Source: Patescibacteria group bacterium (GTDB lineage Bacteria > Patescibacteriota > Minisyncoccia > 2-02-FULL-40-12 > GWA2-44-9). From it: 64,000 nt of DNA. Where the stretch lies: positions 50,093 to 114,092 of the forward strand of contig JBBTSY010000005.1 of NCBI GenBank assembly GCA_038064515.1, read 5' to 3'. The translations under genes and the position numbers were made by a program. The notes below the pieces were generated by a model. It was not told the DNA's origin and made no database searches. It saw nothing but the letters and a program-made list of their open reading frames with translations. Shown piece by piece: positions 10,007 through 13,103 of this stretch (its first letter is position 1; each line of letters begins with the position of its first letter).

Positions 10007-11138
10007 GCCCACATGCGGCTTGCTAGCCGCAGTACTTCAGCACCTTCGTGCTTCAGTTGCAAATCTTGTACAGTTAACCAGGTATTGGTGTATTTTTAGT
10101 CGGAGGCGATTCTTGAGCGGCTTTCGCACGCTCATGAAACTTCGCCTGGAACACCATACGACTTCCGATTTAGGCTTCGGATCAGCCTGGCTGACAAGTC
10201 ACTTGTGGTGAGCCTGCCGAACCAATCGACATCATTTTGTTGACCCTGTAGTGAATTTTCAACTTGCTTTCGCATTGGCCTTTAGGCCGGTTGAAAATCT
10301 ACTACGGGGTGAAGGATAGAGGTTGGATGTGAAAAATTAGAAAATAATTCTTCCCACCTTTCGCCTCAAACTTCTAACCTTTCAGGATTTTTTCGAAATT
10401 CGAAAAAATAGAAAGGAGGTGATCCAAGAGCAGCTTCCGCTACCCTTGCCTTGTTACGACTTAGTCTTTGTCATCGAGCCTACCTTGTCCCCACATAAAA
10501 ATATGGATCTTCGGGTATTCCCGACTCCCCTGACTTGACGGGCAGTGAGTGCAAAACTCGAGAACGTATTCACCGCAGCATTCTGATCTGCGATTACTAG
10601 CGATTCCAGCTTCAAAGAGGCAAGTTGCAGCCTCTTATCCGAACTAGGGATGCCTTTGATGGGATTAGCTCCACCTCGCGGTTTGGCAACCCATTGTAAC
10701 ATCCATTGTATCATGCGTGTAGCCCAGGGCATCAGAGGGCCACGCTGACTTGACGTCATCCCCGCCTTCCTCTGCGTTACCGCAGCAGTCTCGCGTGACA
10801 TATTTAACACACGATAGGGGTTGCGCTCGTTAATCCACTTAAGGAAACCTCTCACGAGACGAGCTGACGACAGCCGTGCAGCACCTGTCCTAGTGCCTTG
10901 CGGGGGCCAAAGTTTCCTAAGGCTTACACTAGAATTTCAAGCCCTGGTGAGGTTCCTCGGTTAGAGTCGAATTGAACCGCATGATCCACCGCTTGTGCGA
11001 ATTCCCGCCTATTTGTTTGAGTTTTAATCTTGCGATCGTACTTCCCAGGCGACACACTTAACGCGTTAGCTTCGCCACTGGAAGGGTCGATGCTCCCAAT
11101 AGCTAGTGTGCATAGTTTAGGGCGTGGACTACAAGGGT

Positions 11139-12133
11139 CATCTTGTATTAACTGCTATCTTCATTTCGAAGATTTTCCGTGTTACCACGGAGATCGGACT
11201 ATATCATTCTCTGAAGATTTTCCACTTTTTCTTCTTCTCTTGAACATATCTCTCAACGATCAGTTGAGAAAATCCGGTCAGAGAGCTTACTTCAGAGATC
11301 CAGCGTTGTTGTAATTCAGCATTTTTGTAAAGCAGGAGGACTTTGGGCAACATTGATGCCACCGCGATGTGAGGCAGGATGATGCGAAGAAGCTTTTGAA
11401 GCTCCTCGCTCGATCTTAGCCACAATCGGTAGTATTCGATCCGACGCCCTTCATGTACGCGAGAGGTTTTTGCAATGTGCACATGCACATCCCATACCAC
11501 ACGCAGGTACTTCTGGAGAAGTTTTTGTTCCTCCAAAGTAAAGGGGTCCGTACAGAATACTCCACGACGACTGTTCACGATAAGCGAACCGTCATCGAGC
11601 CACCAAACCGCAAGCGAGAGTGGCGTCAACTGATTGAGCCACTTCCGCCTGATCCGCAGTCGACCACCTTCGTGGGTGAGTCGATAGAGTTCCGTGAGCG
11701 GTTCAGTTGCCAGGCTTTGATACCTCAACTTCTCTCCTCCATAACCATCGGCTTTTTGAAGCCAGTGATCTGATTTCCCAGAAATTTCCTTCAACTGATC
11801 GGCTTTCCAAAAGAAATACTCCTTTTGATGAACCGAGTGCCGAAACGAAAATCTGGCATTCTTGTAGGGTTGATAGAGCTTTAATGAGCCGTCTCCCAAC
11901 ACAGAACCAAGAATGAGTGCTTTACATTGATCCGACAAAAATGATTTGGTCATTTTCTATCTTCTAAATTTACATAGTCTCTACGGGGTCCTCGATGTTA
12001 CCATCGGGACTTCCCTCGGGATTCCCCTTCAGAAAAGAAGGGCTTCCCCGATACAGCTAGATGCGCACCTCGATATCGCTATCGAGGGGGACACCGTTTA
12101 GTCCGCGATACATTCGTATCGGGACAAGGATTT
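11139..12133 (-). mobile_element. Self-splicing intron (group I-like) inserted in 16S rRNA after the position equivalent to E. coli ~793, carrying a homing endonuclease ORF
   Basis: The conserved 16S segment GGATTAGAT|ACCCTTGTAGTCCACGCC is split. The 5' exon ends in U and the last intron nucleotide is G (omega-G). The intron contains the LAGLIDADG ORF. Confidence 0.75.
11204..11953 (-). CDS. LAGLIDADG homing endonuclease (double-motif), intron-encoded
   Basis: The two motifs are LILGSVLGDGSL and LAVWWLDDGSL. The ORF is co-oriented with the rRNA. Confidence 0.85.
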   Translation of the reverse strand: MTKSFLSDQCKALILGSVLGDGSLKLYQPYKNARFSFRHSVHQKEYFFWKADQLKEISGKSDHWLQKADGYGGEKLRYQSLATEPLTELYRLTHEGGRLRIRRKWLNQLTPLSLAVWWLDDGSLIVNSRRGVFCTDPFTLEEQKLLQKYLRVVWDVHVHIAKTSRVHEGRRIEYYRLWLRSSEELQKLLRIILPHIAVASMLPKVLLLYKNAELQQRWISEVSSLTGFSQLIVERYVQEKKKKWKIFRE

Positions 12134-13103
12134 ATCTAATCCTTTTTGATCCCCACGCTTTCGTGATTGACCGTCAGTTGAGCACTAGCAAGCTGCCTTC
12201 GCTTTTGGTGTTCCGTGCAATATCAATGGATTTCACCCCTACACTGCACGTTCCGCTTGCCTCTTACCCACTCTAGTCGTGCCGTTTCCAACGCGGTCCC
12301 GAAGTTAAGCCTCGGGATTTAACATCAGACTAGCACAACCGGATGCTCACGCTTTACGCCCAGTAATTCCGGATAACGCTCGGGGTCTCTGTATTACCGC
12401 TGCTGCTGGCACAGAGTTAGCAACCCCTTATTCTCGTGGTACCGTCAAAATTCGTCCCACGCAAAAGCGGTTTACGACCCGAAGGCCTTCTTCCCGCACG
12501 CGGCGTCGCTCCATCAGGCTTTCGCCCATTGTGGAATATTCTCGACTGCTGCCACCCGTAGGTGTACGAACCGTGTCTCAGTTTCGTCGTTGAGGGTCGT
12601 GCTCTCACACCCCCTACCCGTCATAGCCTTGGTGGGCTTTTACCCCGCCAACAAGCTGATAGGACCTAGGCCACTCCCAAAGCGGCTTGCGCCTTTAATC
12701 TTACGATACCATCGGGAATTAGCGGAACTTTCGCCCCGTTGTGCCCGACTCTGGGTTATGTACCAAGGTGTTACTAACTCGTTCGCCACTAGCTCGCCTC
12801 CTTGCGGAGGCGGCCCGTTCGACTTGCATGCCTTATCCACGCCGCCAGCGTTCATCCTGAGCCACAATCAAACTCTCTTAAAGAATACTGGTTAACTGTA
12901 CAAGATTGACAACGAACTGTTGCATCTATCGGAACACGCTAGAATTCGCATGGTAGGGCGTCCAGACAATAACACAACCACGATTAGCTCCATTGAGAAC
13001 CAATCGTGGTTGCACTACCAGCACTACCTTGTAAACATGTTAGTTTCCTACATCCATAGTGTACTGTCTATTATAATCCCACGGGGATGAATGTCAATAC
13101 CCT

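Follow-up and report, generated by a model that had tools for sequence, protein, structure and literature searches.

A predicted mobile group I intron with a LAGLIDADG endonuclease gene in the stand-alone 16S rRNA gene of a Patescibacteria bacterium

Insertions are a recurrent trait of 16S ribosomal RNA (rRNA) genes in bacteria of the Candidate Phyla Radiation (CPR). According to Tsurumaki et al. 2024 (PMC11270868), 48% of CPR 16S genes carry insertions; group I introns lie at the conserved sites 16IS4-7 and 16IS10, with LAGLIDADG_2 open reading frames (ORFs) at 16IS5 and 16IS10, and ORF-containing, degenerate and ORF-less forms occur at one site, with a scattered phylogenetic distribution. 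The same text credits Brown et al. with first detecting such insertions in groundwater metagenomes and with finding them removed from transcripts, and reports that I-ShaI, a CPR enzyme other than the one studied here, cuts its own insertion site. Here we describe an insert of 995 nucleotides (nt) in the 16S gene of a Patescibacteria group bacterium, found in a 64,000-nt stretch of contig JBBTSY010000005.1 that we call the window. Its sequence identifies it as a further instance of this described class.

The locus resembles the CPR 16S introns of that study in host group, kind of element, conserved 16S site and LAGLIDADG_2 ORF, and differs in nothing essential from what is described there; among the numbered sites of that study, 16IS5 is a candidate label, not a confirmed one, for the position 793/794 found here. 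One point of description does differ, in that PMC11270868 terms LAGLIDADG_2 ‘single-domain’, whereas the protein of the window lineage is a predicted two-motif monomer of the I-SceI type. Large self-splicing introns in 16S genes, which hinder surveys by polymerase chain reaction and have seemingly been transferred horizontally, were likewise described by Salman et al. 2012, as cited in PMC11270868 and PMC5421297; as far as these citing papers tell, the hosts there are Gammaproteobacteria and not Patescibacteria. Finally, transfer RNA (tRNA) genes of Patescibacteria carry group I introns, mostly of subgroup IA, that self-splice in vitro (PMC13011429, 2026). Their host gene is a tRNA gene and they mostly lack an endonuclease gene, whereas the intron described here combines an rRNA host gene with an endonuclease gene. 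With subgroup IA it shares a compact core and a short P1, and in its ORF-less relatives two small hairpins lie between P7 and the 3′ strand of P3 (P3′), where IA introns have P7.1 and P7.2, a likeness that amounts to resemblance only.

The 16S gene including its intron occupies 12883..10412 on the minus strand, which carries all parts of the gene and intron given below. The Rfam model RF00177 matches it over its full length (1281 bits, model positions 1-1533), and the 2472-nt span of the match is due to one large insert. Read directly on the minus strand, exon 1 (12883..12134, 750 nt) ends in ...AAAGGAUUAGAU at 12134, also written ...GGGAUCAAAAAGGAUUAGAU, and exon 2 (11138..10412, 727 nt) starts at 11138 with ACCCUUGUAGUCCACGCC, giving a spliced product of 1477 nt. 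The insert between them (12133..11139) begins with AAAUCC and ends with AAGAUG. Its insertion point lies between E. coli 16S positions 793 and 794 (after GGAUUAGAU and before ACCC), in the 790 loop of helix 24. The intron boundary can be shifted by one A, and we placed it between U and A on the 5′ side and between G and A on the 3′ side because no other choice yields a terminal G. The U that precedes the 5′ splice site is then at 12134 and the terminal G of the intron at 11139, as a first-pass annotation of the window had proposed. The gene and its exact junctions are thus directly observed.

That annotation had also stated that the universally conserved 785-806 segment is interrupted and that the exons rejoin to the consensus. 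When the exons are joined, the segment indeed agrees fully with the targets of primers 806R and 785R (0 mismatches); the best match to these targets in the unspliced DNA has 7-8 mismatches. Other universal primer sites are divergent, again as suggested, with 2 mismatches for 27F, 1 for 515F (where the gene reads GTGCCAGCAGCAGCGGTAA), 2 for 926R, 2 for 1391R and 3 for 1492R.

The same arrangement recurs in many other contigs. In GTDB genomes, a protein-based scan identified 15 loci, and in all 15 the ORF lies inside a same-strand 16S gene after GGAUUAGAU; metagenome contigs searched for the DNA pattern of the exon-intron junction gave at least 119 stretches. Both junctions are present at the identical site in at least 97 public contigs from many projects, with at least 81 distinct introns at 793/794. 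Among the matches listed, to which this and all following counts of 81 refer, intron length ranges from 284 to 1437 nt; an ORF of at least 230 amino acids is found in 61 of the 81, one of 100-229 amino acids in 2, and none of at least 100 amino acids in 18. An identical junction in so many independent contigs means that the arrangement is neither a chance feature nor an assembly artefact.

The closest of the introns listed, L001, comes from a metagenome-assembled genome (MAG) titled ‘Patescibacteria group bacterium’ and is 91.6% identical in nucleotides and 93% in protein; the 16S exons of the two are 88-93% identical. All other titled relatives among the matches listed are MAGs of CPR lineages (Parcubacteria, Paceibacteria or Saccharibacteria), which agrees with the CPR host that the first reading had assumed. 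Its further remark that this is a known CPR trait is borne out by the published 16S group I introns with LAGLIDADG ORFs (PMC11270868).

These relatives show several further features of their own. In related CPR contigs Rfam matches additional group I introns, at 59-69 bits, where the 16S gene ends in 3′ or shortly beyond (L006 4537-5333, L008 4952-5739, L012 1964-2419), and in L010 (4865-4978) there is a match to group II D1-D4 as well; several introns per rRNA region are seen in relatives and not in the window. In L023 an ORF-less intron at 793 sits in an insertion-disrupted 16S gene (6199-8751) whose best Rfam match is the archaeal small-subunit model, at 410 bits. Introns with a terminal A are L010, L011, L017, L025, L027, L038, L099, L031, L044 and L117 (for example ...AACAAUCA followed by ACCCC). 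All but the last three of these share a common 3′ tail, the J8/7 variant AAAGAUAUAGUCC and an exon 2 that starts with ACCCC, and the sole taxonomic title among those seven is that of L010, an uncultured Candidatus Saccharibacteria MAG. According to a title cited in PMC11270868, a 23S intron of Coxiella is reported to have a non-canonical terminal nucleotide.

We examined next whether the insert can be assigned to a ribozyme class. At the gathering threshold, Rfam gave no match to Intron_gpI inside the insert. A permissive Rfam scan of 11100..12180 gave two such matches, both on the correct strand. The first RF00028 match (12051..11975, 15.4 bits) covers P4, P5, P6 and the AGACUA strand of P7. 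In the second (11381..11175, 26.6 bits, E = 1.7e-4), the confident part of the alignment is GAUAUAGUCCGAUCUCCGUGGUAACACGG, which comprises J8/7, the 3′ strand of P7 and P9. The two matches lie ~770 nt apart, the gap being mostly ORF, and together they hold the classical P, Q, R and S elements. The gathering score of RF00028 is 50 bits, and the low score of the window copy apparently arises because the 750-nt ORF splits the core. Its family assignment therefore rests on its own core elements and on orthologues without the ORF that score above the threshold, namely L080 (72.6 bits), L053 (70.3 bits) and L101 (57.8 bits). Four others that have no intact endonuclease ORF (L023, L044, L085 and L089) had no Intron_gpI match at the Rfam threshold.

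Once its ORF is removed, the window core shares 70% identity with L080, 76% with L053 and 66% with L077 (L077 and L101 have the same intron sequence). In the alignment of L080 to RF00028, P3, P4, P5, P6, P8 and P9 of the model coincide with the segments assigned in the window, and the sole large insert falls between AGACUA and AAC-GCUAGA. Fitting the intron to group I covariance models, the check proposed with the first-pass annotation, thus succeeded for three orthologous ORF-less introns and fell short for the window copy taken alone. Judged by its sequence, the insert is a group I intron, with the P, Q, R and S elements, covarying core helices and a guide for both exons, and the fold that had been anticipated is accordingly the one we predict.

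In the predicted structure, a hairpin between the 5′ splice site and the guide (12098..12127, a P1 extension or ‘P2’) has the lower stem GUCC/GGAC and also appears in the minimum-free-energy fold. It is followed by the proposed internal guide sequence GGUGUC (12090..12095) and by the P2.1 hairpin (12068..12087, CCUCGAUA-GCGA-UAUCGAGG), which is closed by a GNRA tetraloop. Segment 12016..12061, assigned by an Rfam match to model positions 60-148 and by covariation, holds the 5′ strand of P3 (UCUAGC, 12061..12056), P4 (UCGGGG/UCCCGA) and the P5 hairpin, with the P and Q elements. Segment 11975..12015, assigned from the Rfam match and the comparison of copies, holds P6, P6a, P6b with a GUAA loop, J6/7 and the 5′ strand of P7 (GACUA, 11979..11975); its R element is GUAGAGACUA, and its P7 strand is invariant in the 58 copies compared below.

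The core resumes at 11290..11304 with the 3′ strand of P3 (GCUGGA, 11304..11299) and the 5′ strand of P8 (UCUCUGAAG, 11298..11290). Segment 11197..11216, where the Rfam alignment is of high confidence, contains the 3′ strand of P8 (CUUCAGAGA, 11216..11208), J8/7 (AUGAUA), the 3′ strand of P7 (UAGUC, 11201..11197) and the S element GAUAUAGUCC. GACUA and UAGUC pair as P7 with high posterior probability in the model alignment, and the helix is flanked by the R (..AGAGACUA) and S consensus elements. The remaining part (11139..11191) comprises the P9 hairpin (UCCGUG-GUAA-CACGGA, 11191..11176), the P9.1 hairpin (AUCUUC-GAAA-UGAAGAU, 11173..11157) and a 3′ tail down to the terminal G at 11139, a base shared by 71 of the 81 distinct introns. 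A P9.0 pairing of the AUC after the 3′ strand of P7 with the GAU before the terminal G was rejected, being lost on inspection in relatives with other tails.

Covariation provides a test of this structure. For this, 58 distinct copies were reduced to ‘mini-introns’ by trimming the ORF and aligned with MAFFT, and the helices of the window were projected onto the alignment columns. Over the 57 pairs of P2-P9, 95.6% of the cells are paired and 34 pairs have changes on both sides. In 500 column shuffles the mean was 82.0% paired and 26 doubly changed pairs, and the observed values were reached in 0 of the 500, a count that is not a probability since the sequences share ancestry. Pairing in the variable helices fell when the 3′ partner was moved by 1-2 columns.

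P2.1 is paired in 100% of the cells and all 8 of its pairs are doubly changed, and P9 is paired in 99.7%, with compensatory changes in 6 of 6 pairs. Double changes were also found in 6 of 9 pairs of P8 (94.5% of cells paired), 3 of 4 of P6a (96.6%), 2 of 6 of P4 (98.9%), 5 of 6 of P5 (82%) and all 4 of the lower stem of the first hairpin (P2b, 82%). P3 is paired in every cell, with one-sided changes and no double changes in the 58 copies; a switch from G-C to A-U is seen in L115, L131 and L076, which lie outside that set. P6 and P7 are invariant, so that covariation neither supports nor contradicts these two helices, and the upper first hairpin (P2c, 39% paired) and P6b (64%) vary in length, which makes their column pair counts uninformative. 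The occurrence of several pair types in many helices is hard to explain without a real structure, despite the kinship of the sequences. Collectively, the predicted core helices P3-P9 are supported by covariation.

The guide GGUGUC (12095..12090) is complementary to the GAU at the end of exon 1 and the ACC at the start of exon 2, 3 + 3 base pairs (bp), and is invariant in the 58 copies. Its GUC would pair with GAU (12136..12134), with a U.G wobble at the splice site, to form P1, and its GGU would pair with ACC (11138..11136) to form P10. Internal guide sequences of group I introns are normally arranged in this way, and we infer the two pairings from complementarity. The introns of L008 and L009 start with ACUU and ACGU, and on inspection their complementarity to the guide reaches 6 and 5 bp. 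Two other guide candidates were rejected: GACUAA at ~12104, which relatives do not conserve and which places a mismatch beside the wobble pair, and AUCUAG at 12062, which forms the 5′ strand of P3 and would replace U.G by U-A. A likeness of the intron 5′ end (AAAUCCUUGU) to exon 2 (ACCCUUGUAG) follows lineage only loosely and was dropped.

The intron encodes a protein of 249 amino acids in the same orientation as the 16S gene (11204..11953, minus strand). I-SceI and I-WcaI, the closest structural relatives found for it, are monomeric enzymes from yeast-type mitochondrial large-subunit (LSU) rRNA group I introns. The protein matches PF03161 (LAGLIDADG_2) over residues 13-170 with 113.9 bits against a cut-off of 25 (E = 1e-32), and contains motif 1, LILGSVLGDGSL (residues 13-24), and motif 2, LAVWWLDDGSL (113-123). 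Public data contain more than 1100 homologues, and MAGs of Parcubacteria, Paceibacteria or Patescibacteria account for nearly all the named ones. When 37 homologues were aligned with the window protein (38 sequences), both motifs proved invariant at G20-D21-G22-S23 and D120-D121-G122-S123, which include the acidic residues D21, D120 and D121.

An AlphaFold2 model of the protein (predicted local distance difference test, pLDDT, 91.7; predicted template-modelling score, pTM, 0.88) has as its best Foldseek matches in the PDB I-WcaI (6x1j, E = 4e-11, template-modelling (TM) scores 0.69/0.76) and I-SceI (1r7m, E = 9e-11), which their entries name as intron-encoded endonuclease or homing endonuclease, solved bound to DNA. 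A direct sequence search finds I-SceI weakly (E = 0.006), and the LAGLIDADG maturases bI3 and I-AniI are among the weaker fold matches. The Pfam match, the invariant motifs and the I-WcaI/I-SceI fold therefore uphold the double-motif LAGLIDADG reading of the first-pass annotation and add an I-SceI-like subtype: the ORF is predicted to be an intact two-motif enzyme with a monomeric, pseudo-dimeric fold. The likeness to I-SceI and I-WcaI extends to both motifs lying in one chain, to encoding by an rRNA group I intron and to the fold itself (Foldseek E ~1e-10, TM 0.6-0.76). The differences are a sequence identity of 19-20%, a proposed target at 16S 793/794 instead of LSU rRNA, and additional helices at the C terminus (residues ~200-249), encoded by codons that overlap the ribozyme core.

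This overlap follows from the position of the ORF, which starts 22 nt past the 5′ strand of P7 and is inserted between that strand and P3′, the place of the two small P7.1- and P7.2-like hairpins in ORF-less relatives. Its last ~35 codons are also P3′, P8 (with a loop of ~70 nt) and J8/7; the P3′ and P8 5′ strands fall within codons R217-W218-I219-S220-E221, and the UGA stop lies inside J8/7, within AUGAUAUAGUC. These codons therefore serve both the protein and the predicted ribozyme. The stretch ACGCUGGAUYUCUGAAG inside the ORF is nearly invariant across copies whose proteins are only ~64-85% identical, which argues that the ribozyme is under selection even in the copies that bear the ORF; L214-Q-Q-R-W-I-S220 is also invariant in the protein alignment.

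The interrupted gene appears to stand alone. Rfam gave no match to an LSU or 5S rRNA model in the whole 64-kilobase (kb) window, so that at least 10.4 kb downstream and 51 kb upstream separate the 16S gene from any other rRNA gene, which extends the earlier statement that the rRNA genes are separate. Another unlinked arrangement is seen in L089, a relative with a degenerate-ORF intron, where the 23S gene (12782-14246) starts ~7 kb after the 16S gene (3759-5526) and the gap holds tRNAs and other sequence. Upstream of the window 16S gene lie genes for a KH-domain (KhpA-like) protein and TrmD, and downstream a small ORF and a gene for a bacterial PH-domain protein. A promoter-like site (13070..13097, minus strand; TTGACA-16 nt-TATAAT, a 12/12 match) is found just after trmD, ~190 nt upstream of the 16S 5′ end.

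A 26-nt inverted repeat with 92% complementarity joins 12888..12913, just upstream of the mature 5′ end, to 10056..10081, ~330 nt past the mature 3′ end (both minus strand). It encloses the 16S gene with an unusually long trailer, and is probably a processing stem of the ribonuclease III (RNase III) type in the pre-rRNA. The trailer has a hairpin of its own with 24-nt arms (10240-10263 and 10290-10313), and belongs to no Rfam family, a permissive Rfam scan of it giving matches at chance level only. The terminator that the first-pass annotation had placed downstream of the 16S gene was not recovered, since the terminator scan found no such site downstream of the 3′ end and the region is the 3′-arm side of the processing stem. 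In the 16S leader, between the promoter and the stem arm, a 20-bp hairpin with a T-rich tail (12972-13015, minus strand) was scanned as terminator-like, and could be a leader or antitermination structure, or an attenuator. The other Rfam matches in the window are four tRNA genes, all uninterrupted: 33564-33635 (minus), 33742-33812 (plus), 54765-54853 (plus) and 63722-63794 (plus).

Taken together, we consider it likely, with a rough probability of 0.85, that a mobile group I intron, working by standard group I splicing plus homing, interrupts the stand-alone 16S gene of this CPR bacterium. Under this hypothesis, the 16S gene would be transcribed from its own sigma-70-type promoter, and the leader of the precursor would pair with the site ~330 nt past the 16S 3′ end. 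The intron would fold within the precursor into the P3-P9 core, and an external guanosine bound in P7 would attack after U793. The terminal G (11139) would then enter the same pocket, and the freed 3′-OH of exon 1 would attack the 3′ splice site. Such self-splicing of the window copy would rejoin the 790 loop of helix 24, which must be intact for a working 30S subunit. By analogy with I-SceI-type enzymes, the intron-encoded monomer would cut intron-less 16S alleles between GGATTAGAT and ACCC, the proposed substrate being an intron-less 16S duplex with ...AAAGGATTAGATACCCTTGTAGTCCACGCC..., and repair of the cut alleles would spread the intron by homing.

Several points weigh against this reading. 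The window copy scores below the RF00028 gathering score (26.6 against 50 bits), and 10 of the 81 related introns end in A and not in G. Exon bases contribute only 3 bp to P1 (4 bp if the intron pair A1-U is included), and neither P1 nor P10 can be tested by covariation, because the exon bases are invariant. Because the ORF takes up part of the core, its translation and the folding of the intron may get in each other's way. For the window copy, splicing, joining of the exons and endonuclease activity are predictions. Finally, a competing hairpin of 5-6 bp, formed by exon GGAUU and intron AAUCC, would place the 5′ splice site in its loop.

This last pairing is the minimum-free-energy fold of the 5′ region and is kept in 99% of the cells, a figure to be read with the fact that most sequences were retrieved by a pattern containing AAATCC. 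Among the copies retrieved through their protein, L008, L009 and L013 have C-to-U changes in AAUCC, with G.U pairs kept in L008 and L009 by inspection. We hypothesize that exon 1 (A)GGAUU rebuilds with intron AAUCC(U) a helix-24-like hairpin that rivals the short P1 and, together with the overlap of ORF and core, acts as a switch, an idea we regard as speculative and rather unlikely. If it were true, a refolding step or ribosome-assembly factors would control splicing and with it 16S maturation, and any one transcript could either be translated into the endonuclease or fold into the ribozyme, but not both.

The same observations bear on whether the intron can splice by itself. It might be group I by descent with a ribozyme that is not self-sufficient and needs the LAGLIDADG protein as a maturase, or a host factor; in the extreme case the insert would stay in the rRNA. 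The very short P1, the hairpin that hides the 5′ splice site and the overlap of the ORF with P3′, P8 and J8/7 would fit such a dependence, as would the presence of the maturases bI3 and I-AniI among the weaker fold matches and the chlamydial 23S intron reported as unspliced in rRNA (cited in PMC11270868). We nevertheless find it improbable. The core helices keep their pairing with compensatory changes across the 58 copies, and the strong constraint on the RNA within the ORF speaks for a ribozyme that works. From what is known of the 30S subunit, the 16S, probably the sole one, should be put out of function by 1 kb of extra sequence in its 790 loop. CPR insertions are, furthermore, absent from transcripts according to PMC11270868.

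A removal of the insert by RNase III without ligation, leaving a fragmented 16S as in some bacterial 23S genes, would need no ribozyme at all. Intervening sequences of this kind occur in reduced-genome bacteria, possibly including CPR (PMC11270868), and the long duplex that flanks the window 16S gene does resemble an RNase III site. The insert, however, has a complete covarying group I core with a guide for both exons, the inverted-repeat listing contains no repeat joining its two junctions, and its site is the universally conserved 790 loop and not a variable helix, all of which makes this explanation highly improbable. Metagenome assemblies can mis-join rRNA regions, yet an assembly chimera or a dead 16S pseudogene is the least credible explanation of all, given the identical junction in at least 97 independent contigs from many projects, the full-length, high-scoring 16S exons, an intact ORF with all family-invariant residues, and the perfect promoter and processing stem that flank the gene.

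A mobile group I intron of a described class thus remains our preferred reading, and the window copy itself contributes little biology of its own. It illustrates once more why 16S amplicon surveys miss Patescibacteria, its 806R/785R site being split and its other primer sites having 1-3 mismatches. The useful by-product is a comparative set of introns at one 16S site. With their covariation-supported structure, these introns could serve as a model for the cycles by which homing endonucleases are gained and lost, and could be used to study splicing with a 3-bp P1. They also offer a clear case of codons that double as the core of a predicted ribozyme.

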